Assembly: GCA_012840065.1 (NCBI GenBank)
Contig: DUMD01000022.1
Location: 1 to 37,221 of the forward strand
Direction: 5' to 3'
Source of the DNA: Clostridia bacterium
GTDB lineage: Bacteria > Bacillota > DUMD01
Length of the DNA stretch: 37,221 bases
The notes beneath the pieces are model-generated. The model had not been told where the DNA came from. It saw only the letters and a list, made by a program, of their open reading frames with translations, and did no database searches. A program made the translations under genes and the position numbers. This document shows, piece after piece, positions 703 through 34,369 of this stretch (its first letter is position 1; each line of letters opens with the position of its first letter).

Positions 703-3357
703 CTACTTACGATTGGTCCTTGTTTTAACCGCCGCCTGGGCAGCAGCTAAACGAGCGATCGGAACTCTGAAAGGTGAACAGCTTACGTAATTCAAACCAA
801 CCATATGGCAGAACTCAACAGAGCTATGTTCTCCTCCATGCTCACCGCAAATACCCAATTTAAGGTTTGCTTTAACCCCTCTTCCTTTATCTACTGCTAA
901 TTTAACTAATTGTCCAACCCCATTTCTATCCAAAACAGCAAAGGGGTTGTCAGGTAAAATCTTATTGTTCAGATAATAAGGAAGAAATTTACCCTCAGCG
1001 TCATCCCGGCTGAAACCAAAAGTAGTTTGGGTTAAGTCATTCGTTCCAAAGGAGAAGAAATCAGCAAATTCGGCAATTTGATCGGCTGTCAGACAAGCCC
1101 GAGGAGTTTCAATCATTGTACCAACTAAATAATCACATTCAACCCCGGTTTCTTTAAATATTTTTTCGGCAGTATCCACGGTAAGTTTGCGCATAATATC
1201 CAATTCATTTGAGTGAATTACTAACGGAATCATTATTTCCGGTTTGACATCATAGCCTTCTTTCTTCAGTTCCACAACCGCTTCGATGATTGCTTTAACC
1301 TGCATGCTATAAATTTCAGGATAAACTATCCCCAACCTGCAACCCCTATGACCTAACATCGGGTTAAATTCGCTTAGGGCTTTAACTTTTCGCAGCAGGT
1401 TTTCTTTTTCTGCAATTTCCTGAGGATCACCATTCTGCAAACGCAGTTTTGTTACCTCAACAAGCAACTCTTCTTCATTGGGAAGAAATTCATGCAAAGG
1501 AGGATCAAGAAGGCGAATAGTTACCGGTAGCCCTTCCATAGCCGCTAGTATACCTTTAAAATCTTCTCTCTGCATAGGTAGTAATTTAGCTAGCGCTTCT
1601 TCCCGTTCTTCTAAAGTTTCAGCTAAAATCATTTGTTGAACAATTGGCAGCCGTTTTGGATCCATAAACATATGTTCTGTACGGCAAAGACCGATACCTT
1701 CAGCTCCAAATTCCCGAGCCTTCCGAGCATCTTCAGGGGTGTCAGCATTGGCTCTAACCCCTAAAACACGAATTTCATCGGCCCAAGAAAGAAGTTCCTG
1801 GAATTCTGCACTAAGTTCTGGGTCAATAGTAGGAACCTCACCTAACATAACCTGACCGGTTGAACCATCAATGGTAATAAAGTCCCCTTCTTTAACAACA
1901 ACATCTCCAACTTTAAATAGTTTTTGAGCATAATCAATTTTAATCGCTTCGCAACCACAAACACAAGGTTTACCCATTCCCCTTGCTACCACCGCAGCAT
2001 GGCTGGTCATTCCACCCCTGGCGGTTAAAACACCCTGGGCTGCAACTATTCCATGAATATCATCCGGTACAGTTTCTGTCCGCACTAAAACAACTTTTTT
2101 TCCCTCTTTGCCCAGTTTTTCCGCTAGGTCAGCATCAAAAACAACTTCTCCAACTGCTGCCCCGGGAGAAGCCGGAAGACCTTTGGCCAAAACTTCAACT
2201 CTAGCATCAGGATCAAGTCTTCTGTGTAAAAGCTGGTCTAATTGTTCAGGTTCTACTCTCAAAAGCGCCTCTTCTTTAGTAATTATCCCTTCTTTTACTA
2301 AATCAACAGCAATTTTTACGGCAGCGGCGGCAGTTCTTTTACCATTTCTGGTTTGTAATAAGTATAATTTACCTTTTTCAATGGTAAATTCGATGTCCTG
2401 TACATCTCTATAATGCTGTTCTAAAAGATTACAAATTTTCATGAACTCTTCAAATACTTCAGGCATTTCCTCTTGTAACTTCATAATAGGTTGGGGAGTA
2501 CGAATACCAGCCACCACATCTTCTCCTTGAGCATTTACCAGATATTCCCCATAAACAACTTTTTCCCCAGTTGACGGATTACGAGTAAAAGCAACACCTG
2601 TTCCAGATGTATTACCAGCATTACCAAATACCATGGATTGAACATTAACAGCAGTTCCTAAGTGATCGGGAATCTTATTGATTTGACGATAAACAATGGC
2701 CCGCTGATTGTTCCAAGAAGCAAAAACAGCGTTTATAGCTAACATTAATTGTTTTAAGGGATCCTGAGGAAAATCCTCTCCGATCTCTTTTCTAACTAAT
2801 TTTTTATACTCCTCTACTATTCCTTGAAGAGCAGATACATCCAATTCAGTATCATAAACTACTTTTCTTTCTTGTTTAAATTTATCAATAACCTCTTCAA
2901 AAAGATAATGTTCAATTCTTAAAACCACGTTGCCAAACATTTGGATAAACCGGCGGTAACAGTCATAAGCAAATCTTTCATCCTGAGTTTGTTTTATTAA
3001 TCCTTTAACCGTTTCATCGTTTAAACCAAGATTGAGGATAGTGTCCATCATTCCCGGCATGGAGATCACAGCACCTGAACGTACTGAAACCAATAAAGGA
3101 TTCTCTGTACTGCCAAACTTCTTTCCAATTTTCTGTTCAAGCTTACTAAGGTTATCCATAATTTGTTCTTCTAAACCTTCCGGAAATTTTTCTCCTTGGG
3201 CATAAAACTCGTTACAAGCCTCAGTTGTGATTGTAAAACCGGGAGGTACAGGCAAACCAATTCTAGTCATTTCTGCTAGACCTGCACCTTTACCCCCTAG
3301 CAAATTTTTGATTTCCATACTTCCCTCTTCAAAAGCATAAACATATTTTTTACCCAC
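703..3357 (-). CDS. ppdK: pyruvate, phosphate dikinase
   Basis: 884 aa. N-terminus MGKKYVYAFEEG, phospho-His loop GGMTSHAAVVARGMG, C-terminal GICGEHGG motif. GTG start at 3357 with AGGAGG 9 nt upstream. The start overlaps the upstream gene by 8 nt. Confidence 0.97.
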   Translation of the reverse strand: MGKKYVYAFEEGSMEIKNLLGGKGAGLAEMTRIGLPVPPGFTITTEACNEFYAQGEKFPEGLEEQIMDNLSKLEQKIGKKFGSTENPLLVSVRSGAVISMPGMMDTILNLGLNDETVKGLIKQTQDERFAYDCYRRFIQMFGNVVLRIEHYLFEEVIDKFKQERKVVYDTELDVSALQGIVEEYKKLVRKEIGEDFPQDPLKQLMLAINAVFASWNNQRAIVYRQINKIPDHLGTAVNVQSMVFGNAGNTSGTGVAFTRNPSTGEKVVYGEYLVNAQGEDVVAGIRTPQPIMKLQEEMPEVFEEFMKICNLLEQHYRDVQDIEFTIEKGKLYLLQTRNGKRTAAAAVKIAVDLVKEGIITKEEALLRVEPEQLDQLLHRRLDPDARVEVLAKGLPASPGAAVGEVVFDADLAEKLGKEGKKVVLVRTETVPDDIHGIVAAQGVLTARGGMTSHAAVVARGMGKPCVCGCEAIKIDYAQKLFKVGDVVVKEGDFITIDGSTGQVMLGEVPTIDPELSAEFQELLSWADEIRVLGVRANADTPEDARKAREFGAEGIGLCRTEHMFMDPKRLPIVQQMILAETLEEREEALAKLLPMQREDFKGILAAMEGLPVTIRLLDPPLHEFLPNEEELLVEVTKLRLQNGDPQEIAEKENLLRKVKALSEFNPMLGHRGCRLGIVYPEIYSMQVKAIIEAVVELKKEGYDVKPEIMIPLVIHSNELDIMRKLTVDTAEKIFKETGVECDYLVGTMIETPRACLTADQIAEFADFFSFGTNDLTQTTFGFSRDDAEGKFLPYYLNNKILPDNPFAVLDRNGVGQLVKLAVDKGRGVKANLKLGICGEHGGEHSSVEFCHMVGLNYVSCSPFRVPIARLAAAQAAVKTRTNRK

Positions 3358-4189
3358 TGAATTTGCCCTCCTTGCGTAGAATATTTAATATTTCATTGGC
3401 TGTCTCTTCGATAGCCTTATTGGTAACATCAATAATAGGACAGCGAAGTTTTTTCATAATCTTTTGAGCATACTCTATTTCCTCTAGAATTCTTTCTAAA
3501 CTGGCATAATCAGCATTTGCAGAAAGGCCCAAAGCTTTAAGACGAGCTTGACGGATTCCTGTAAGCTGAATAGGGTCGATAGTTAAACCAATAATTTTAT
3601 TGGCAGGCTGCATAAATAATTCCTCCGGAGGAGCTACCTCAGGAACAAGGGGAACATTTGCCACTTTTAAACGTTTATTAGCTAAATACATGCTTACAGG
3701 CGTCTTTGATGTTCTGGAGATTCCAACTAAAATAATATCAGCATAAATTAGTCCTCTAGGATCTTTACCATCATCATATTTAACCGCAAATTCTATTGCT
3801 TCGATCTTCTGAAAATATTTCTCATCCATTCGATGAAGAAGACCGGCCTCAAGTTTGGGTTTTTTACCGGTCATTATGGCAAAGGCATCTATTACAGGAC
3901 CCAAAATATCCACTGTATAAACATTATATTTTTCTGCTTCTCGACGAAGAATTTCCTTTAATTCAGGAGAAACTAAGGTATAAACGATGATACTTTTATA
4001 TTTTGCCGCATTAACAACCGCCTCTTCTATTGCCTCAGGACTGCTAACATAAGAAAGACGTTTAATTACCACATGACCGGAATTATATTGGCTTGCTGCT
4101 GCTCTTACAACAAACTCTGCCGTCTCACCTACAGAATCAGACACAACAAAAATAATAGGTGTCTTTCCTTCTTGATCTTTGATCTCCAT
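3350..4189 (-). CDS. pyruvate, phosphate dikinase regulatory protein (PDRP, DUF299, YqfL-like kinase/pyrophosphorylase)
   Basis: 279 aa. N-terminal VVSDSVGETAEFV and P-loop-like VGISRTSKTPVSMYLA, both typical of the PDRP/PSRP family. It sits immediately upstream of ppdK and overlaps it. Confidence 0.9.
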   Translation of the reverse strand: MEIKDQEGKTPIIFVVSDSVGETAEFVVRAAASQYNSGHVVIKRLSYVSSPEAIEEAVVNAAKYKSIIVYTLVSPELKEILRREAEKYNVYTVDILGPVIDAFAIMTGKKPKLEAGLLHRMDEKYFQKIEAIEFAVKYDDGKDPRGLIYADIILVGISRTSKTPVSMYLANKRLKVANVPLVPEVAPPEELFMQPANKIIGLTIDPIQLTGIRQARLKALGLSANADYASLERILEEIEYAQKIMKKLRCPIIDVTNKAIEETANEILNILRKEGKFSG

Positions 4190-8084: not shown

Positions 8085-8366
8085 AGAAAATGACCTTTCG
8101 TCTCTGATAATGGTAATTCATTATCAGGGACGAAAGGTCATCCTTCCGCGGTTCCACCCTGATTAGCTGTTCATCTTAACAGCTCCCTTAATTGACTGGG
8201 CTTTACTACTCTGTCGGATTCTTCTTATCCAACAAAGGTTCCTCCCACGCTCCGGAGTGCCTAAGGATTAATAACCAGGCCAGACTTGCACCAAACTCTA
8301 GCTCGCTAAAGCAGGTTTATTAACCTTTATCTCCTTCACAGCTACTACCTTATTTAATTTTTACTT
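8085..8366 (-). promoter_or_regulatory. T-box riboswitch leader, glycine-specific (glyQS)
   Basis: Minus-strand T-box sequence AATCAGGGTGGAACCGCGG (8147-8165). The terminator hairpin gacctttcgtccctgataatg...cattatcagagacgaaaggtc plus a U-run lies at 8091-8140. Stem I elements AGAG and GGTGCAA are present. The specifier context CCTTAGGCACTCCGGAGC, with GGC at 8259-8261, closely resembles the B. subtilis glyQS leader as I recall it. Confidence 0.9.
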
Positions 8367-22954: not shown

Positions 22955-23695
22955 TTATCCTCCTATTTGTCCAAAATGGTATAAAACCATGGTCAATCCT
23001 GCCATTCCTGCCGTTTCCGTCCTTAAAATCCTTCTTCCAAGAGTAACAGGATGCCAACCTTTTTCTTGAGCAATTTTTATTTCTTCCGGCGCAAATCCAC
23101 CTTCCGGCCCTACTAATAAATGTATTTCTCGAGAGTAAGGGTTAAGCTCCAACAGTTTCCTTAGACTATTCTCTTTTTCCGTTTCAGCAAACATAAGATA
23201 CAAGCATTTATCCTGAGAAAATAAAGTTATTTCCTGCCAATTTTTAATAGGATTAATAACCGGAATAACACTTCTCCTACACTGTTTTGCCGCTTCATGT
23301 GCAATTCTCTGCCACCGTTTTTCCCGCTCTTTTTCTTTTTTTTGATTCAGTTTTACTATTGTATACTTACTATAAACAGGATTAATTTCAGCTACTCCTA
23401 ATTCGGTACATTTTTGGATAATGAAATCCATTTTATCCCCTTTTGGTATGCTCTGCCAAAGAACAACTTTGACCTCAGGTTCAGGGTTAGAATCAAGTCT
23501 TTGCACAACCCGGCAGAGAATTTTTTCATTCACTTCAACTATTTCAGCTAAAAATTCATTTCCATTGCCATCAGCCACTTGAATCCTATCGCCAGGCCCA
23601 GATCTTAAAACTTTTCGTAAATGATAGGCTTCAGAACCACTGATAATAACTTTTTCATCCTTTATATCTGAAGGTAACACAAAAACCCGGTTCAC
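22955..23695 (-). CDS. rsmE: 16S rRNA (uracil1498-N3)-methyltransferase RsmE
   Basis: 246 aa. PUA-like N-terminus (HLRKVLR) and the C-terminal SPOUT motif GPEGGF...LGRRILRTETA. GTG start 7 nt after AGGAGG. Confidence 0.9.
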   Translation of the reverse strand: MNRVFVLPSDIKDEKVIISGSEAYHLRKVLRSGPGDRIQVADGNGNEFLAEIVEVNEKILCRVVQRLDSNPEPEVKVVLWQSIPKGDKMDFIIQKCTELGVAEINPVYSKYTIVKLNQKKEKEREKRWQRIAHEAAKQCRRSVIPVINPIKNWQEITLFSQDKCLYLMFAETEKENSLRKLLELNPYSREIHLLVGPEGGFAPEEIKIAQEKGWHPVTLGRRILRTETAGMAGLTMVLYHFGQIGG

Positions 23696-23708
23696 CTATC
23701 TGCCTCCT

Positions 23709-24653
23709 TTAAGCCGGCGTCCGGCGGGCAACAATGCAAACCCATTCACCTTGCCTATTCAGCTCAAGAATTTGATACTTGAATTTTTCTAATATTTCAA
23801 CAACTTCTTGTTCACGTTCTAAAATTATTCCTCCTGCAATAAATATTCCCCCAGGGCGAAGAACAGCATTTAATTGAGGAATAAGATCAATTATAATTTT
23901 GGCAATTATATTAGCCAACACTAAATCTGCCTGCTTAAATGAACTAGGGACTAAATCTCCATATTCTACTTTTATTATGTCTTGTTCATTATTAAGCTGA
24001 ATATTCTTTTCAGCCACCTCTACCGCAACCGGATCAACATCAATCGCCATTACACTGCCTGCCCCTAATTTAGCAGCAGCAATGGCTAAAATACCCGATC
24101 CTGTTCCTACATCCAGCACTGAATCACCGGGATTGAGATATTTTTCCATGGCCAACAAACACATATTAGTAGAGGGGTGAGTTCCAGTACCGAAAGCCAT
24201 ACCGGGATCAAGGGAAATAACTCTTTCTCCTTCCTTTGGAGAATAGTCTTCCCAGCTAGGCCTAATTACCAAACTTTTACCTACTTTTAAGGGTTTATAA
24301 TATGCTTTCCAGGAATTAGCCCAATCCTCTTCGTTTATTTCTGTTATTACCGCAATCGGAATGTCTTCCTCACATCCATCGGCAGCAAATCTTGAATTTA
24401 AAATTTCTTTCAACTCTTCCACTTTTAAAAAGAGCTCGTCGTTTGCCGGCAGATATCCTTTAATAACAACTCCTTCAAAATCATATTCCAAAAGCTTTTG
24501 ATCATAGCAATCCCAACAATTTTCCTTGATATATTTACCTACTAAAGCAGGATCTTCAATAACGACGCCGTTTACCCCTATTTCATACAGACAGTCGATA
24601 ACCTTTTCAGATCTCTCTTCATTGGTCCTAATGCTGATTTCAGCCCACTTCAT
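23709..24653 (-). CDS. prmA: ribosomal protein L11 methyltransferase
   Basis: 314 aa. SAM motif VLDVGTGSGILAIAAAKLGA and the PrmA N-terminal domain. Confidence 0.93.
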   Translation of the reverse strand: MKWAEISIRTNEERSEKVIDCLYEIGVNGVVIEDPALVGKYIKENCWDCYDQKLLEYDFEGVVIKGYLPANDELFLKVEELKEILNSRFAADGCEEDIPIAVITEINEEDWANSWKAYYKPLKVGKSLVIRPSWEDYSPKEGERVISLDPGMAFGTGTHPSTNMCLLAMEKYLNPGDSVLDVGTGSGILAIAAAKLGAGSVMAIDVDPVAVEVAEKNIQLNNEQDIIKVEYGDLVPSSFKQADLVLANIIAKIIIDLIPQLNAVLRPGGIFIAGGIILEREQEVVEILEKFKYQILELNRQGEWVCIVARRTPA

Positions 24654-24673
24654 ATTCTCGCTCCCCTATTTTT

Positions 24674-25876
24674 TTATATTCCAAAGGTATCTTTCATTCT
24701 TTCAAAAAAACCCTTTTGCTCTCCCTTGCCCTCAGCCTTCTTTTCACTTTTGCTATCCATTTTTTCGCCAGAGGATTTTCCAGAATCCTTTTCCTCACTT
24801 AAACGGGCAAATTCTTTTAACAACTCACGCTGTCTTGGAGTTAAATTGGTTGGTGTTTTTACAATTATCCTAACATGCTGATCTCCCCGACCAAATCCTC
24901 TTAAATTAGGAAACCCTCTTTTTCTTAATCTAAATGAAGTTCCAGTTTGAGTTCCTTCCGGAATTTTTAGAACAACAGGTCCGTCCAAAGTTGGAACTTC
25001 CACTTCATCTCCCAGAGCAGCCTGAGTAAAAGATATTTCTAAATCATAGATAACATCAGAGTCTCTACGTTTGAAATATTTATGCGGTCTTACCTGAATA
25101 AAAACATACAGATCGCCTGGCGGTCCTCCTAAGGTTCCTGCCTCCCCTTCACCTGCAATTCTAATCCGAGAACCAGTATCAACTCCGGGAGGAATTTTTA
25201 CCTGGATTGTCCTAACCTTTTGGGTTCTTCCTTTCCCTCTGCATTCAGGGCAAGGAGTTTCAATTATATGTCCTTCTCCTCCACAAGCTTCACAAGTCCT
25301 TACACTTACAAACCTGCCTAAAGCGGTATTTCTAACATACTGAACCTGGCCTGTTCCTTGACAGGTTGGGCAGGTTTTAGGTTGGGTACCAGCTTTTGCT
25401 CCCGTACCATTACAAGCAGAACATTTTTCCATTCTGGGAACCTTAATTTCGGTTTCCAAACCAAAAGCAGCTTCCTCAAAACTAATCTCTAAATCATACC
25501 TTAAATCTGCTCCTCTTTGAGGAGTCCTTCTCTGCTCCCTGGCGCCCATACCACTGCCAAAGAACATATCAAAAATGTCTCCAAAACCCGTGCCAAAACC
25601 ACCAAAACCACCAAAATCAGCATTATTCCCAAAACCAAATCCCCATTGACCTTGACCATCTGCATGACCAAACTGGTCGTAACGTGCTCGTTTTTGGGGA
25701 TCACTAAGAACATCATATGCTTCTGCAATTTCCTTAAATTTTTCTTCCGCATTGGGATCATCCTTATTAGCATCCGGATGATACTGACGAGCCAATTTCC
25801 TATAAGCTTTTTTTATTTCTTCGGCTGTTGCATCCCTGCTTACTCCCAATACCTCATAATAATCCCTTTTCGCCAA
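24674..25876 (-). CDS. dnaJ: molecular chaperone DnaJ (type I)
   Basis: J domain with HPD, a G/F-rich linker and four CxxCxGxG repeats ([32 protein letters not shown]). TTG start at 25876 lies 8 nt after AGAGGTGGTGA. Confidence 0.96.
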
Positions 25877-25928
25877 TTAATATTTCACCACCTCTAAATG
25901 GGTTAAGTAACTCTTCAAAACATAAAAG

Positions 25929-25950
25929 GGAAAGGGGTTAACCCCTTTCC
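25929..25950 (-). terminator. palindromic hairpin between dnaK and dnaJ (partial terminator or processing site)
   Basis: Perfect 22-nt palindrome ggaaaggggttaacccctttcc (9-bp GC-rich stem). On the minus strand it is followed by cttttatgtttt. Confidence 0.5.
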
Positions 25951-25958
25951 GGAATTTT

Positions 25959-27797
<1,839 letters not shown>

Positions 27798-27838
27798 TCA
27801 TCCTCCTCAAACTAGTTTATTTTTAATTTGGTCAAGAT

Positions 27839-28462
27839 TTAACCCGGCAACTTAGTTATCTTCACAAATGCAGGGCGAATTAATTTTGTTCCAAATTTGG
27901 TTTTCATGATATAGCCCTTTTGCAGTTCTTCAATTACCGTATTTTCCGGATATTCATCTGTTTCTTCAATCATAATTGCTTCCTGACATTCTGGATCAAA
28001 TTCTTTTCCTATTTCCACAGTAACAGGAAATACATTCTTTTTAGTTAATAGTCTCTGAAATTTGTTAAGAGCCATATCTAGACCAGAAATAATTGCATCA
28101 ACACTTTTAGTACTCTTAGCTGAATCAACAGCCCGTTCAAAATCATCAACTACGGGTAAGAAATCTTTAATAAAATACTCGCTGACCATATCAACTAGGC
28201 CCTCTTTTTCTAATAGGGTTCGTTTTCTATAATTATCAAAATCTGCCTGAAGCCTTATGTATCTGTTGTTTAGTTCTTCCAACTCCTTTGCTTTTGCTGC
28301 CAATTCCTGTTCTAACTCAACCTTCTTAGCAGTCTCTTTATCTCCAATCTGCTCTTCGTTAATCTGTTCCACAGTTTCTTCCTTATTTGTTTCTTCATTT
28401 GCCTGTTCAAGATCACTTGTCTCTTTAAGATCTAGGTGATCCAAATTATTCTCATCAGTCAT
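27839..28462 (-). CDS. grpE: nucleotide exchange factor GrpE
   Basis: Acidic N-terminus, coiled coil (RLQADFDNYRKR) and a C-terminal beta domain. ATG at 28462 lies 8 nt after AAAGGTGG. The track's GTG at 28474 falls inside the RBS. Confidence 0.94.
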   Translation of the reverse strand: MTDENNLDHLDLKETSDLEQANEETNKEETVEQINEEQIGDKETAKKVELEQELAAKAKELEELNNRYIRLQADFDNYRKRTLLEKEGLVDMVSEYFIKDFLPVVDDFERAVDSAKSTKSVDAIISGLDMALNKFQRLLTKKNVFPVTVEIGKEFDPECQEAIMIEETDEYPENTVIEELQKGYIMKTKFGTKLIRPAFVKITKLPG

Positions 28463-28574
28463 TCTAATTACCACCTTTCTTATCTTTCCTATTCCAATTA
28501 ATTATTGTAAATTACATTTATCTAACTCAAACTAGGAGTTAAATAAATTATAACTACCTTCCTTCTAAAATAGA

Positions 28575-30161
28575 TTAAAATTCACTCAAATCTTGGCCCT
28601 CAGACAGCACTGATTTTTCCTGTCCTTCTTTTTCCTCTCGTTTTTTTATAATCGTATCTATCCGCAAAATAGCCTCGGCAATTTCTCCTGCTGCCTTAAG
28701 AGCATGATTTTTTACCAAAACCGGATCAACCACGCCCAGTTCATACATATCTGCAACTTCACCCGAATCGCAATTAATCCCTAAAGACATCTTCCCACTT
28801 TCAGCCTGGGCAGCAATTACATCTTCTACCTTTTCTAAAGCATTAAACCCAGCATTAATAACAATCTGGGCCAAAGGACGCTTTAAAGCTTCAATTACAC
28901 AGTCTACACCATAAGCAGTCATACCCTTAATCATTTCCCGGAATTCTTTTAATTGGCGCATTATACCCAATTCTATGCTTCCCCCACCAGGTACTACGCC
29001 CTGTTTTAAAGCAGCCTGAACGGAAGAAGCTGCATCTTTAGCTATTCTCTCCCGTTCTCCCACAACTTCTTCAGTTGCTGCTCCTACCAATATGGTAGCC
29101 ATTGGCTTACTTTTCCCGCCTATTATTCTTATTTGTTCCAATTTTTCATCTTCATATACCAGGTCTGCAAAACCCAAATATTTCTCCAACTCCTCTTTAG
29201 ATCTTTTCAAACCTGTCCGTTTCATTGGTTTTGCTCCAGTATGTTCAGCGATCTTTTTAAGGTCTTTATTGGAAACCCGCTGTACAACCATGGCTTGGGC
29301 TTCAGTTAATATTTCTTCCGCCATGTCATCTACTCTTCGGTCAACTAAAACCAAATTTACCCCAAGTTCAGTCAATTTATAAATATTATAACGAAATTCT
29401 TCTCTTAACTCCCTAAACCGGTTAAATCCCGCTTCCGTAGCTAAAGCCTCTTCACTTAATTCTTCCGGCTCCAAAGCATCATCAATAACTACTATTTTAG
29501 CCTGTTTGATTACTGCCGGCATTTGGCTATTCATTCGTTCCCTGTTAATAATCAACCCCATAAAAACTTCATTTTCCGCTCCTACTTCAGCTACAACTGT
29601 ATCTGCCAGTTTAAAATTTTTATCTATAATTTTTTCTTTACCTATTAATTTAGCAGCAGAAATAACCAAATCAGCTATATCTTCATGTTCTCTACCCGCT
29701 ATTAAAGCAACCTGATACAAAAGTGGATCATCCAAGTCAGTAATAGGACGGGCAGATTGTTCTAAAATTTTCTTAGCCTGACGTAATCCTTGTTTCATTC
29801 CTTCAATAATTCTGACCACAGGAACACCTTTTATAACTTGGTTTACTCCTTCCGCTACTAAACTACCCGCAAGAATAGTTGCAGTGGTTGTTCCATCACC
29901 AACCTCCTCCTGCTGGGCCTTAGCAATATTAATCATCAATTTAGCTGCAGGATGATTGGCATCCATTTTATCTAAGATTGTAACACCATCATTAGTAATA
30001 ACAACTTCCCCAAACCGATCAACCAACATTGTGTCTAGTCCCTTAGGGCCAATTGTTCCCTCAACTGCAGCAGTTATAGCCCTAACAGCATTGGAATTAG
30101 TTAATAAAGCTGCAAGTCGCTCATCAACCTCAGAGTTTCCTGTTACCTGTTTTAAACTCAT
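28575..30161 (-). CDS. thermosome/CCT-family (group II-like, archaeal-type) chaperonin
   Basis: 528 aa with GPKGLD (38-43), ITNDGVTIL (55-63), GDGTTTA (88-94), VPGGGSIE (390-397) and ILRIDTII (498-505). These are signatures of group II chaperonins rather than GroEL. ATG start 7 nt after AGGAGG. Confidence 0.88.
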   Translation of the reverse strand: MSLKQVTGNSEVDERLAALLTNSNAVRAITAAVEGTIGPKGLDTMLVDRFGEVVITNDGVTILDKMDANHPAAKLMINIAKAQQEEVGDGTTTATILAGSLVAEGVNQVIKGVPVVRIIEGMKQGLRQAKKILEQSARPITDLDDPLLYQVALIAGREHEDIADLVISAAKLIGKEKIIDKNFKLADTVVAEVGAENEVFMGLIINRERMNSQMPAVIKQAKIVVIDDALEPEELSEEALATEAGFNRFRELREEFRYNIYKLTELGVNLVLVDRRVDDMAEEILTEAQAMVVQRVSNKDLKKIAEHTGAKPMKRTGLKRSKEELEKYLGFADLVYEDEKLEQIRIIGGKSKPMATILVGAATEEVVGERERIAKDAASSVQAALKQGVVPGGGSIELGIMRQLKEFREMIKGMTAYGVDCVIEALKRPLAQIVINAGFNALEKVEDVIAAQAESGKMSLGINCDSGEVADMYELGVVDPVLVKNHALKAAGEIAEAILRIDTIIKKREEKEGQEKSVLSEGQDLSEF

Positions 30162-30207
30162 TCAATGTCCTCCTTGTGCTTAGTCGCCTTCTTATTCTAT
30201 TTCTATT

Positions 30208-31239
30208 TCAAGTGAACATTTCAGTCAAAACTTCAGATAAAGTCCTAGCCGTTAAATCTAAAACAGCAATTACCTTAGAATATTCCATTCTAGTAGGACC
30301 AATTACTCCAATGGTGCCAATCTGTTTTTCCCCAATTTTATAAGTAGCGGTTACAACGCTGCAGTCCTTCATCTCTTCATATTGGTTTTCTTCTCCAATG
30401 CTTACTGTTATGCCTTTTCCAATATTTTCCATTAAAACACTGGAAATAACCTCGTCTTTTTCCAGTAAGTCAAGAAGAGCTTTAACTTTATCTAAGTCCC
30501 TAAATTCAGGCTGATCAAGTATATTAGTAGTCCCACCACGATATACCCGTTCAGCATACTGCGGTTTTATATTTTTATGCAAGAAATCAACCAGTTCCTT
30601 AATAACCTGCTTATACCTTAAAAATTCCCGTTCTAAATTATCTATATTGACATTTTGAATCTGCTCTGCATTTAACCCTCTAAATTTCTGGGTTAAAAAC
30701 TGGGAAATCCTATTTAGATCCTCTTCCTCAACAAATTTAGGCAATTCTACTAACTTATTTTCAACTAATCCAGCATCCGTAACCAAAACCATTAAAACTT
30801 GTCTTTTACTTAAAGGAATAAGTTGTAAATGCTTAAAGTTGCTTTTCTGGATGATAGGTTTTAAAGCCACAGCTGTATAATTGGTTAATGAAGATAGCAT
30901 TTTCGCAGTAAGATTGATAAAATATTCTAACTCTGTAGGTTTCGTCCTATATCCGGATTTTATCAACTCTATTTCTTCATCTTTTAATTTTTTTATCTTC
31001 ATCAATCGATCCACATAAAAACGATAACCTTTGTGAGAAGGTATCCTTCCTGCCGAAGTGTGAGGCTGTTCCAAATATCCGGACTCTTCCAAATCCGACA
31101 TTTCATTGCGAATTGTGGCCGGACTTATGCCTAAATTATAACGACGTGATATAGTTCGGGAACCTATCGGCTCACCAGACGAAACGTAGCAATTAATAAT
31201 AGCTTGAAGGATTTTTTGTTTTCTTTCGTCCATCAACAT
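30208..31239 (-). CDS. hrcA: heat-inducible transcription repressor HrcA
   Basis: 343 aa. The N-terminal wHTH region RKQKILQAIINCYVSSGEPIGSRTI is typical of HrcA. A CIRCE operator lies upstream. Confidence 0.95.
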   Translation of the reverse strand: MLMDERKQKILQAIINCYVSSGEPIGSRTISRRYNLGISPATIRNEMSDLEESGYLEQPHTSAGRIPSHKGYRFYVDRLMKIKKLKDEEIELIKSGYRTKPTELEYFINLTAKMLSSLTNYTAVALKPIIQKSNFKHLQLIPLSKRQVLMVLVTDAGLVENKLVELPKFVEEEDLNRISQFLTQKFRGLNAEQIQNVNIDNLEREFLRYKQVIKELVDFLHKNIKPQYAERVYRGGTTNILDQPEFRDLDKVKALLDLLEKDEVISSVLMENIGKGITVSIGEENQYEEMKDCSVVTATYKIGEKQIGTIGVIGPTRMEYSKVIAVLDLTARTLSEVLTEMFT

Positions 31240-31255
31240 CTAACCACCTACTTTG

Positions 31256-31282
31256 TTAGCACTCATGGACGGAGAGTGCTAA
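31256..31282 (-). promoter_or_regulatory. CIRCE operator (HrcA binding site)
   Basis: TTAGCACTC-N9-GAGTGCTAA, a perfect match to the CIRCE consensus, 17 nt upstream of the hrcA ATG. Confidence 0.95.
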
Positions 31283-31294
31283 TATTCTACTAAA

Positions 31295-31323
31295 AAAATA
31301 TCACTAGCTCCAATCTTTGTCAA
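31295..31323 (-). promoter_or_regulatory. probable sigma-A promoter of the hrcA operon
   Basis: TTGACA (31323-31318), 17-nt spacer, TATTTT (31300-31295), just upstream of CIRCE. The -10 element is weak. Confidence 0.4.
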
Positions 31324-31397
31324 GTTCCAATTAGCATCAAATTAATCATAGAGCCGTTCAAAACAGAATTATGAAAATTAAAAACTTGCAAGATTTT

Positions 31398-32543
31398 TTA
31401 GCAAATAAATTCCAAAAAAACCTGGTTAGATAAAAGAAGACCTTTCCGTGTTAGGCTTAGATTTTTACCATTAAACTGAATCAATCCCCGTTTTTTTAAC
31501 CGTTCAAGCTTTTCGTCGTATAATAAAATCAAATCCTCTCCTGTTTCTTCAGCCAGTTCTTTCAAATCGATTCCCTTGTTAAGTCTTAAACCAAGGATTA
31601 TCGTATCTTCTATCCTCCGTTGCAAATTAATAGCTTCTTTTGTTTCAATAGGCAACCTACCCCTTTCAAGATGGAATATGTAATCATTTATTGAGTTATA
31701 ATTGCTATAACGGTATCCATTAAAATAGGAATGGGCTCCAGCCCCTAGCCCTAAATATTGTTGGTGTTCCCAATAAATCAAATTATGCTGACACTCATAA
31801 CCAGGAAGAGAAAAATTTGAAATTTCATATTGCTTATATCCTTTCTCTGTCAAAAAATCAAGAGCATAATCATACATTTCTATTTCTACATCTTCCGAAG
31901 GCAGACCTACCTTCCCCTGCTGAAAAAGGTTAAATAATTCCGTACCTTCCTCCAGTTTTAAACTATAGACGGAAATATGCTGGGGATTGAGTTCAACTAG
32001 CTTGGTAAGACTTTCTGCCCAATCATCCATAGTCTGGCCCGGAAGCCCAAACATTAAATCCACGTTAATATTAGTAAAGCCTTCTTCTTTCAACAGAAAA
32101 TAAGAATCTATAAATTCATCTAAATCATGAATCCTGCCCAAGCCCTTAAGAAGCCTATCCTGCCAAGCCTGCAGTCCCATACTAATCCTATTAACTCCGG
32201 CTTTTTTTAAAAGTTTAATTTTAGCTCGGTCTAAAGTCCCTGGGTTAGCCTCTAAAGAAAATTCTCCACCTGGTTTTCTAGGTAAAAGAGAAAGGCAATA
32301 ATCAAACAGGTAAGCCAAATGCTTACCCGCTAAACAGGTGGGTGTACCTCCACCAATATAAACTGTATCTATTTTTTTCATATTATATTCAAGAATTTCC
32401 CGATAGCTAGCCATTTCCAGTTGTAAAGCAGCTAAATATTTCTCCACCTTATTTTGTTCCAAAGGGTAGGAATTAAAATCGCAATAATTACATTTGCTGA
32501 CGCAAAAAGGAATATGGATATACAGTCCTAATTTTTCTTCCAT
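31398..32543 (-). CDS. hemW: radical SAM heme chaperone HemW (HemN-like)
   Basis: 381 aa. Motif HIPFCVSKCNYCDF and the HemN C-terminal domain. It occupies the conserved position between lepA and hrcA. Confidence 0.9.
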   Translation of the reverse strand: MEEKLGLYIHIPFCVSKCNYCDFNSYPLEQNKVEKYLAALQLEMASYREILEYNMKKIDTVYIGGGTPTCLAGKHLAYLFDYCLSLLPRKPGGEFSLEANPGTLDRAKIKLLKKAGVNRISMGLQAWQDRLLKGLGRIHDLDEFIDSYFLLKEEGFTNINVDLMFGLPGQTMDDWAESLTKLVELNPQHISVYSLKLEEGTELFNLFQQGKVGLPSEDVEIEMYDYALDFLTEKGYKQYEISNFSLPGYECQHNLIYWEHQQYLGLGAGAHSYFNGYRYSNYNSINDYIFHLERGRLPIETKEAINLQRRIEDTIILGLRLNKGIDLKELAEETGEDLILLYDEKLERLKKRGLIQFNGKNLSLTRKGLLLSNQVFLEFIC

Positions 32544-32557
32544 AATAGAGAACCACC

Positions 32558-34369
32558 CTACTCTATTTTCAAGACAGCCATAAACGCTTCCTGTGGAATT
32601 TCAACGCTTCCCACCTGTTTCATTTTCTTTTTACCCTCTTTTTGTTTTTCCAAAAGCTTTCTTTTTCTGGTGATATCTCCTCCATAGCATTTGGCCAAAA
32701 CATCTTTACGCAGAGCTTTTACTGTTTCCCGAGCAATAACCTTACTGCCAATTGCAGCTTGAATAGGAATTTCAAACAACTGGCGTGGAATTATAGATCT
32801 AAGTTTTTCTACTAAAGCCCTGCCCCGATAAAATGCTTTATCTTTATGAACTATAGACGATAAAGCATCAACCGGTTCGCCGTTTAGAAGAATATCCATC
32901 TTTACCAAATTTGATGCTCTGTATTCTAAAAATTGGTAATCTAAAGAAGCGTAACCCTTTGTCCTGGATTTCAGCTTATCAAAGAAATCATAAATAATTT
33001 CGCTAAGAGGCATATGATAAATAAGAACAACCCGATTTTCACTTAAATATTCCATGTTTTTAAATTCACCACGTTTTTCCTGACAGAGTTCCATTACTGC
33101 TCCCACAAAATTAGACGGTGTCATAATATTTGCTTCTACATAGGGTTCGTAGATAGCTTCTATTTCTTGAACAGGAGGAAGTTTGACCGGATTATCTATT
33201 CGCAATTTTTCCCCGTCTTTCTTCAGTACTTCATAAATTACGCTGGGAGCAGTAGCGATTAGGCTTAAACCATACTCTCGCTCCAGCCGTTCCTGAACTA
33301 TTTCCATATGCAACAAGCCAAGAAAACCGCACCTAAAACCAAAACCTAGAGCAACAGAGGTTTCCGGTTCATAAACTAAGGAAGCGTCATTAAGCTCCAG
33401 TTTCTCCAAAGCATCTCTTAAAAGATCATAATCATTGGTTTCTACAGGATAAAGTCCACAATAGACCATCGGAGTAATCTTTTTATAGCCAGGCAACGGT
33501 TCTTCCGCCGGCCGTTCTGCATCGGTAATTGTATCACCAACCCTACAGTTTTTCACATTTTTTATACCGGCAGCTAAAAAACCAACTTCTCCAGCCCTTA
33601 ACTCGTCTACCAACACCATATGCGGGCGAAAAACGCCAATTTCATTGACTTCAAATTGTTTATTAGTTGCCATCAGTTGAATTTTCATCCCAGGATAAAT
33701 GCGACCGGATACGATTCTAAAATAGGCAATGACACCTTTATAAGGGTCAAAATGGGAATCGAAAATAAGAGCTTTTAAAGACTCATCCTCGCTCCCTTTC
33801 GGGGCCGGGATTTTCTTAACAATGGCCTCCAAAATATCTTTAATTCCCGTACCATCTTTAGCACTGGCTAAAATAGCATCGCTGGCATCTAAACCAATTA
33901 CATCCTCAATTTCTTTCTTTACCCTATCCGGATCAGCATTAGGAAGGTCTATTTTATTAATTACAGGAATAATCTCCAAATTATGTTCAAGAGCCAAATA
34001 AACATTTGCGAGAGTCTGGGCTTCTATTCCCTGAGCGGCATCAACAACCAGCAAAGCACCTTCACAAGCTGCTAAACTGCGGGACACTTCATAAGTAAAA
34101 TCAACGTGACCAGGTGTATCAATTAAATTTAACTCGTAGACTTCCCCATCCTCAGCTTTATACTCCAGGCGTACCGCCTGAGCTTTAATAGTAATTCCCC
34201 GCTCCCGTTCTAGATCCATCTTATCTAGAACCTGCTCAGACATTTCTCTTTTAGATAAGGTTCCGGTATATTCTAATAATCTATCAGCGAGAGTGGATTT
34301 TCCGTGGTCAATATGAGCAATTATGGAAAAGTTTCTAATTTTCTTCTGTCTTTGGCTAACTTCACTCAT
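32558..34369 (-). CDS. lepA: translation elongation factor 4 (LepA)
   Basis: 603 aa with [21 protein letters not shown] and the LepA C-terminal domain. Confidence 0.97.

Follow-up and report, generated by a model that had tools for sequence, protein, structure and literature searches.

A probable Group III chaperonin gene between hrcA and grpE in the dnaK operon of an uncultured, low-GC lineage of the Bacillota

Which kind of chaperonin is encoded between the heat-shock repressor gene hrcA and grpE in the dnaK operon of a bacterium, and how might its expression and activity be tied to the Hsp70 system? This question is raised by a stretch of 37,221 nucleotides (nt) from a Clostridia bacterium (GenBank assembly GCA_012840065.1, contig DUMD01000022.1, positions 1 to 37,221, analyzed in full and referred to below as the window), in which a chaperonin gene, here named cpn, lies directly between hrcA and grpE (Table 1). 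An initial annotation had described its product as an archaeal-type (group II-like) chaperonin, embedded in an operon controlled by HrcA through its operator, the controlling inverted repeat of chaperone expression (CIRCE). The best explanation overall, to which we assign a probability of roughly 0.93, is that cpn encodes a Group III chaperonin of the family whose prototype is Ch-CPN, the Carboxydothermus hydrogenoformans protein, in the canonical hrcA-cpn-grpE-dnaK position, with the folding machine and the regulation that we infer for it below.

The open reading frame (ORF) was recovered at exactly the coordinates and the length of 528 amino acids given by the initial annotation, and all five of the thermosome/CCT motifs that it had listed are present, namely GPKGLD (residues 38-43), ITNDGVTIL (55-63), GDGTTTA (88-94), VPGGGSIE (390-397), and ILRIDTII (498-505). 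The spacings also read as it had given them, with 46 nt from the hrcA stop codon (TGA, 30208-30210) to the cpn ATG, an AGGAGG ribosome-binding site in between, and 112 nt from the cpn stop codon to the grpE ATG at 28462 (an in-frame GTG at 28474 would give 100 nt). No Cpn10/GroES gene was identified among the called genes within 10 kb on either side of cpn, in agreement with the earlier observation that no groES-like gene adjoins it, and neither a Cpn10 nor a second Cpn60 was found in the 37-kb window.

The protein matched the Pfam family Cpn60_TCP1 (PF00118) over its full length with 378 bits. Thermosome/CCT models ranked on top in the NCBIfam scan (316 vs 166-196 bits for GroEL), as had been expected from the motifs, with scores of 316.5, 316.0, and 311.5 bits for thermosome beta, thermosome alpha, and the archaeal thermosome subfamily against cut-offs of 400, 450, and 671.1 bits. 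The GroEL models, with cut-offs of 352-582 bits, matched in two separate stretches. Six genuine archaeal thermosomes, run as a control on the same thermosome models, scored about 750-863 bits, and two other bacterial Group III proteins scored 303-321 bits, like the query. No NCBIfam model attained its cut-off for the query or for these two Group III proteins, and with all thermosome and GroEL scores under cut-off, curated criteria place the protein neither among the thermosomes nor with GroEL.

Among proteins of known structure, a phmmer search of the PDB placed 9RWQ (ACIII, a reconstructed Group III ancestor) on top with 664 bits (E = 1e-198), followed by Ch-CPN (5X9U/5X9V) with 472 bits (E = 1.5e-140 for 5X9U), the reconstructed Group II ancestor ACII (9RWP) with 292 bits, thermosomes with about 240 bits, and CCT subunits with about 178 bits. 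The query was 81% identical to its nearest metagenomic relative (P0002/L011), 65-71% to Pelotomaculum, Thermosinus, Thermincola, Sporomusa, and other named members, 62% to ACIII, 46% to Ch-CPN, 33-38% to Group II, and 26% to GroEL. Two neighbour-joining trees were built, one with 22 sequences (505 columns, 200 bootstraps), comprising the query, 14 further Group III proteins, Ch-CPN, ACIII, two thermosomes, ACII, and the GroEL proteins of Escherichia coli and a Saprospiraceae bacterium, and one with 90 natural sequences from a metagenome scan (14 Group III, 44 Group II, and 32 Group I; 476 columns, 100 bootstraps). The splits of Group I, Group II, and Group III each had 100% bootstrap support in both trees, and the query fell within Group III as sister to L011/P0002, and thus outside Group I, among sequences that did not sample CCT.

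Names given to the family in public records vary. JGI labels its members "chaperonin GroEL (HSP60 family)", some NCBI and UniRef records read "60 kDa chaperonin", and PDB entry 5X9U is labelled "Thermosome, alpha subunit". The molecule name of PDB entry 9RWQ is "Ancestral Group II Chaperonin (ACII)", and its paper assigns 9RWQ to ACIII (PMC12696368).

An et al. (2017, PMC5635000) described Group III as a separate monophyletic clade located in the dnaK operon, with a built-in lid of two helices that has a four-residue deletion relative to Group II, without the six-residue nucleotide-sensing loop, and with Arg155 in place of the Group II lysine. In Ch-CPN, the catalytic residue is Asp373, and the hydrophobic lid tip consists of L237, F243, Y246, and F253, reported as strictly conserved (PMC5635000). 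In our alignment, the query has a 6-column gap at residues 155/156 where three Group II sequences (1A6D_A, 1Q3R_A, and ACII) carry the nucleotide-sensing loop, R157 (in IAGREHE) aligns with Ch R155, and D376 aligns with the catalytic Ch D373. The ATPase-site motifs GPKG (38-41), NDG (57-59), GDGTTT (88-93), and GGG (392-394) are present and invariant in 50 homologs, as are R157, D376, L240, and F256; the ATP-binding and catalytic motifs, whose disruption the initial annotation had named as a possible counter-argument, are thus intact. The lid segment (218-285) comprises 68 amino acids, as in all Group III sequences, compared with 72 in Group II and 48 in GroEL, and its gaps relative to Group II (3 + 1 residues) are the same as in Ch-CPN. 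The lid had earlier been called near-normal in length (about residues 221-279), which was right but imprecise, given 68 residues against 72 in Group II. The lid tip is formed by L240, F246, F249, and F256, three of which are identical to Ch-CPN.

The structure prediction agreed with this picture. An AlphaFold2 monomer model, built on a 50-sequence alignment, had a mean predicted local distance difference test score of 85.7 and a predicted template modelling (TM) score of 0.81, with two helices modelled in the lid (237-240 and 243-265), which bears out the helical-protrusion lid that had been anticipated. Foldseek retrieved the crystal structures of closed Ch-CPN (5X9V_A; E = 5.8e-47, TM 0.85/0.91) as the top match and of open Ch-CPN (5X9U_A) as the second, with all Group II chains behind (TM about 0.78). 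Of the description "archaeal-type (group II-like)", the resemblance to thermosomes rather than to GroEL therefore stands, but the protein is better placed in Group III, as it scores under the thermosome cut-offs and lacks the nucleotide-sensing loop and 4 lid residues.

We compared the locus with 12 other Group III loci, from Thermosinus, Thermincola, Pelotomaculum, a Syntrophomonadaceae metagenome-assembled genome (MAG), a Bacillota MAG, and seven metagenome contigs. The hrcA gene was identified directly 5' of cpn in all of them (12/12), and grpE-dnaK followed 3' of cpn in each of the 10 loci extending far enough. None of the 12 had a GroES gene; in contrast, the same metagenome scan yielded 32 GroEL loci, of which 27 had groES as the gene immediately upstream. 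A perfect CIRCE was present upstream of hrcA in the six loci searched for it (L001, L002, and L008-L011). The hrcA-cpn spacers measured 6-46 nt across the Group III loci, and the cpn-grpE spacers 2-112 nt overall, with 2-61 nt in six relatives measured. Short spacers around cpn in all loci agree with the literature, in which Group III genes are embedded in the dnaK operon with one exception (PMC5635000, PMC5220055) and, in the account that PMC5904260 gives with reference to Techtmann & Robb 2010, are under HrcA regulation. The initial annotation had pointed to Carboxydothermus for a "group III" chaperonin at this place in the operon, and this was correct (PMC5635000; PMC5220055). For the family, it has been stated that the genomes carry a canonical groES-groEL operon besides the Group III gene (PMC5220055); groESL would not be expected next to dnaK. 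The arrangement is common to Negativicutes, Thermincola, Pelotomaculum, and Syntrophomonadaceae and is therefore old.

The metagenome data also contained six loci in which a genuine thermosome gene lies directly upstream of grpE-dnaK (L023 3501-7259, L031 3501-7532, L035 3501-7850, L052 2455-6590, L054 3501-7519, and L063 2939-7251). These loci have a guanine-plus-cytosine (GC) content of 0.57-0.69 and no hrcA, and their thermosomes score 751-863 bits on the NCBIfam thermosome models and group together inside Group II, not as sister to Group III. Chaperonin-grpE-dnaK linkage thus seems to be present in some archaea too.

The perfect CIRCE said to head the operon was confirmed, 16 nt before the hrcA ATG, and lies 12 nt after the -10 hexamer of a promoter-like site (TTGACA-17-TATTTT) that was the top candidate in the scanned region 23500-32700, with a score of 10/12; the closest relative (L011) has the same -35 and -10 hexamers with the same spacing upstream of its CIRCE. 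This CIRCE was the sole match in the window at up to 3 mismatches (0/100 shuffles matched), and no second or degenerate copy was found within 3 mismatches anywhere in the window, including the cpn-grpE spacer. The terminator scan reported no terminator-like site on the coding strand in either the hrcA-cpn or the cpn-grpE spacer, as had been noted for both sides of cpn, and the hrcA-cpn spacer is without structure (-1.7 kcal/mol on folding). On the coding strand, a terminator-like hairpin, and a strong one, is first met between dnaK and dnaJ; its stem recurs after dnaK in L011 (7107-7131), where the loop differs. This hairpin probably marks the end, possibly a leaky one, of the hrcA-cpn-grpE-dnaK transcript, and the arrangement suggests that hrcA-cpn-grpE-dnaK is the primary heat-shock transcript, with dnaJ-prmA expressed by read-through or from a separate promoter. 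From these sequence features we infer that cpn is co-transcribed with its neighbours and induced by heat.

Table 1. Location of the chaperonin gene, its operon neighbours, and associated signals in the window
Feature	Position	Strand	Description
chaperonin gene (cpn)	28575..30161	-	ATG to TAA ORF, 528 amino acids
AGGAGG ribosome-binding site	30169..30174	-	read from sequence, 7 nt before cpn ATG
hrcA, heat-shock repressor	30208..31239	-	Pfam HrcA C-terminal domain 238.6 bits, and HrcA DNA-binding domain
CIRCE operator (HrcA binding site, predicted)	31256..31282	.	perfect inverted repeat TTAGCACTC-N9-GAGTGCTAA
sigma-A-type promoter-like site	31295..31323	-	TTGACA-17 nt-TATTTT, TG before -10 hexamer
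AT-rich hairpin, cpn-grpE spacer	28507..28557	-	13-bp core stem, 7-nt loop
grpE	27839..28462	-	207 amino acids from ATG at 28462; Pfam GrpE 142.5 bits; JGI gene call
dnaK	25959..27794	-	611-amino-acid ORF; Pfam HSP70
terminator-like hairpin after dnaK	25929..25950	-	GGAAAGGGG-TTAA-CCCCTTTCC, then U-rich CTTTTATGTT; 9 pairs, 6 G-C
dnaJ	24674..25876	-	400-amino-acid ORF; Pfam DnaJ
prmA	23709-24653	-	ORF after dnaJ; Pfam PrmA
HemN_C-type radical-SAM gene	31398-32543	-	between lepA and hrcA
lepA	32558-34369	-	upstream of hemN-like gene
T-box leader, upstream of glyQ-glyS	8123-8348	-	RF00230, 75 bits, E 1.6e-16, full length

Several points weigh against the assignment to a Group III chaperonin that is expressed together with the Hsp70 genes. 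The trees are distance-based and do not contain eukaryotic CCT. At the lid tip, the position of Ch Y246 is occupied by Phe (F249), both here and in the nearest relative P0002, so that its aromatic and hydrophobic character is kept. The cpn-grpE spacer, at 112 nt, is the longest among the loci examined and contains an AT-rich hairpin, which was absent from the initial annotation, and a weak promoter-like site, and a partial uncoupling of cpn from grpE-dnaK expression is therefore possible, judging from these features. A Zhaonella member of the family (P0120) has Val at the position of Ch F243; together with F249 in the query, this means that the lid-tip set reported in 2017 as strictly conserved is not strict in the larger family.

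Could cpn instead be a true Group II thermosome gene, recently gained from an archaeon and placed in the dnaK operon? Thermosome beta and alpha are its top curated models at 316 bits, the protein resembles Group II in its overall fold and in having a built-in lid, and some archaeal loci do have a genuine thermosome gene directly upstream of grpE-dnaK. However, the scores fall below all three thermosome cut-offs, compared with the 750-863 bits of genuine thermosomes, and the protein, which is 33-38% identical to thermosomes vs 46-81% to members of Group III, has neither the nucleotide-sensing loop nor 4 of the lid residues. Further, the GC content of cpn (0.396) and its GC content at third codon positions (GC3, 0.28) match those of the neighbouring genes, the arrangement is common to distant Bacillota and so old, and the host is bacterial by its neighbours, with the best matches of its GlyS in the Bacillota. 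Recent horizontal transfer was rejected on this host-like base composition and on the synteny common to distant Bacillota, and a newly acquired thermosome is very improbable. A divergent GroEL (Group I) paralog that uses a GroES encoded elsewhere would fit the JGI, NCBI, and UniRef records that name homologs GroEL or 60 kDa chaperonin, and the GroEL models do match at 166-196 bits, but these matches lie in two stretches far under the cut-offs, with 26% identity, and the apical segment, for which a helical protrusion was modelled, exceeds that of GroEL by 20 residues. With no adjoining GroES gene, vs groES directly upstream in 27/32 GroEL loci, and with the query outside a fully supported (100%) Group I split, we regard this reading as hardly tenable. 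Equally hard to credit is a decaying or ATPase-dead remnant without chaperonin activity. The frame is intact and full length, the nucleotide-binding motifs and the catalytic Asp are conserved, and assembly of a second sample yielded the identical protein. The comparison of cpn with the 81%-identical L011 ortholog gave 0.113 nonsynonymous (pN) and 0.756 synonymous (pS) differences per site and a pN/pS of 0.15, which is an upper bound as pS is saturated, and this indicates strong purifying selection on cpn. Between the two loci, the chaperonin identity of 81% is near that of DnaK (85%) and above those of HrcA (73%) and GrpE (59%).

The remaining alternative accepts the Group III assignment and supposes that cpn is expressed apart from the Hsp70 genes, through attenuation or processing at the spacer hairpin or through a weak internal promoter for grpE-dnaK. 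The transcript of the Bacillus subtilis dnaK operon is processed between hrcA and grpE. In the window, the spacer of 112 nt exceeds the 2-61 nt of six relatives, it folds better (-19.9 kcal/mol) than shuffled sequences (z = -2.28; 4 of 200 shuffles fold equally well), and a promoter-like site scoring 9/12 (TTGAGT-18-AATAAT, 28530-28501) lies inside it and overlaps the hairpin, which is identical in a second sample (L005). On the other side, the hairpin contains 2 G-C pairs and no U-tract and is therefore not terminator-like, the terminator scan did not report it, promoter matches at 9/12 occur at the shuffle rate (25 found, 24.3 expected), and the hairpin is absent from the 43-nt cpn-grpE spacer of the closest relative (L011). 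Nor was the hairpin picked up by the inverted-repeat finder, folding being the one method that detected it, and the Rfam scan of the operon region, also at a permissive E-value, returned no RNA family, so that it matches nothing curated; it could be a processing element, a stability element, or nothing. With a single CIRCE in the window, heat control by HrcA, if any, has to act from upstream. Separate expression of cpn and the Hsp70 genes is accordingly unlikely, and we retain a Group III chaperonin gene expressed within the hrcA-cpn-grpE-dnaK transcript as the best explanation.

For this Group III protein, we propose a mechanism by analogy with Ch-CPN (PMC5635000), in which identical subunits would form two stacked eight-membered rings (a homo-16-mer) and ATP binding would close each ring through the built-in two-helix lid, with little cooperativity. 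By the same analogy, R157 would contact the gamma-phosphate and D376 would catalyze hydrolysis, and with its lid built in, the chaperonin would need no GroES, a proposal made by homology to Ch-CPN. The promoter and operator sequences suggest that transcription would start at a single sigma-A-type promoter, would be repressed by HrcA bound to CIRCE, and would run through hrcA, cpn, grpE, and dnaK to the post-dnaK hairpin, and unfolding of proteins would thus lead to joint production of the chaperonin and the Hsp70 system. Published work on the family covers refolding that depends on ATP, assembly into a 16-mer, the lid, and the lack of the nucleotide-sensing loop (PMC5635000, PMC5220055, PMC5904260). 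That DnaK passes its clients on to the lid of the chaperonin has been proposed (PMC5635000, PMC5220055); this is plausible here and speculative for the whole family. We also consider a bolder reading, in which the Group III chaperonin would keep HrcA active, with or instead of GroEL, and thereby serve as the unfolded-protein sensor of the CIRCE regulon, while DnaK clients would arrive via the lid and, in this lineage, the hairpin spacer would tune the chaperonin/Hsp70 ratio. This reading is drawn from the position of cpn directly after hrcA in 13/13 loci, including the window, which may reflect a dedicated regulatory role that goes further than common induction by stress, and we hold it to be doubtful.

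Compared with known systems, Ch-CPN (5X9U open, 5X9V closed; An et al. 2017, PMC5635000) is alike in clade, dnaK-operon position, the missing nucleotide-sensing loop, the Arg at the gamma-phosphate position (R157/R155), the shortened two-helix lid, and the catalytic Asp (D376/D373), and is the best structural match, but differs in sequence (46% identity) and at the lid tip, where Ch Y246 corresponds to F249. Its host is a characterised thermophile, whereas cpn belongs to a low-GC (about 37%) uncultured member of the Bacillota. ACIII (9RWQ), the closest PDB sequence with 62% identity and 664 bits, was reported to assemble into two 8-mer rings, to hydrolyze ATP, and to protect clients (PMC12696368); it is a synthetic reconstruction, whereas the query is natural. 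Group II chaperonins (thermosome, CCT/TRiC) share the three-domain fold, a helical lid instead of GroES, and the motifs GDGTTT, VPGGG, and C-terminal ILRIDxxI, but have a 6-residue nucleotide-sensing loop with a lysine and a lid that is 4 residues longer, at 33-38% identity. The query is set apart from them also by its bacterial host and its predicted HrcA/CIRCE control, and in Group III it is the binding of ATP that brings about closure, with little cooperativity, as opposed to its hydrolysis in Group II (PMC5635000). GroEL/GroES belongs to the same Cpn60_TCP1 superfamily (PF00118) and shares the logic of the HrcA/CIRCE regulon as in Bacillota (PMC8957991), but has 7-fold rings, a detachable GroES lid, and an apical segment that is 20 residues shorter, at 26% identity. 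The dnaK operon of B. subtilis has the same order from hrcA through dnaJ, with prmA (yqeT), an RsmE-type methyltransferase, and a MiaB-type radical-SAM enzyme (PMC8957991). It differs in that the query and every Group III locus examined add cpn between hrcA and grpE.

The window forms part of JGI contig Ga0153798_10000076, which measures 147,861 nt. For hrcA, an alternative start is the ATG at 31233, and the JGI gene call comprises 341 amino acids. Upstream of it lie lepA and a hemN-like gene, as in B. subtilis. The neighbours are typical of endospore-forming Bacillota and include HrcA with CIRCE, SpoIIP, YabP, YqfD, and a glyQS T-box; with SpoIIP, YabP, and YqfD in the neighbourhood, the host is therefore an endospore-former. 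GlyS has metagenomic relatives at 74-78% identity, and its best named matches (Desulfofundulus, Frackibacter, and Desulfolucanica) reach about 55% at most; without a close named relative, the host represents an uncultured lineage of the Bacillota, and the GC content of the window is low (about 0.37). The T-box scored under the Rfam gathering score of 93, for which reason the default scan of the window reported nothing, and it is the ordinary glyQS T-box of Bacillota. The window is otherwise made up of housekeeping genes, including PPDK with its kinase/pyrophosphorylase regulator (703-4189), glyQS, recO, two 4HBT thioesterases, era, cdd, dgkA, ybeY, a 7TM-HD protein, phoH, yqfD, yabP, rpsU, a MiaB-type radical-SAM gene, rsmE, prmA, lepA, spoIIP, and rpsT. 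GC skew stays negative from end to end, as fits a window in which almost every gene is on the minus strand.

The family and its operon arrangement were described in 2010 (Techtmann & Robb, as cited in PMC5635000, PMC5220055, and PMC5904260), and a Group III structure was solved in 2017 (PMC5635000). As both the family and its operon context are already published, the locus is an added member and not a discovery; it introduces no new principle and extends the family to an uncultured, low-GC, spore-forming lineage of the Bacillota. Across the sampled loci, the hrcA-cpn-grpE-dnaK arrangement was invariant, as was CIRCE where it was searched for. Group III chaperonins are under-studied in vivo, and they bear on the debate over whether they are relics of an ancestral chaperonin or the result of an old transfer from an archaeon to a Firmicute. 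The thermosome-grpE-dnaK linkage seen in archaeal loci likewise bears on the origin of the Group III arrangement.

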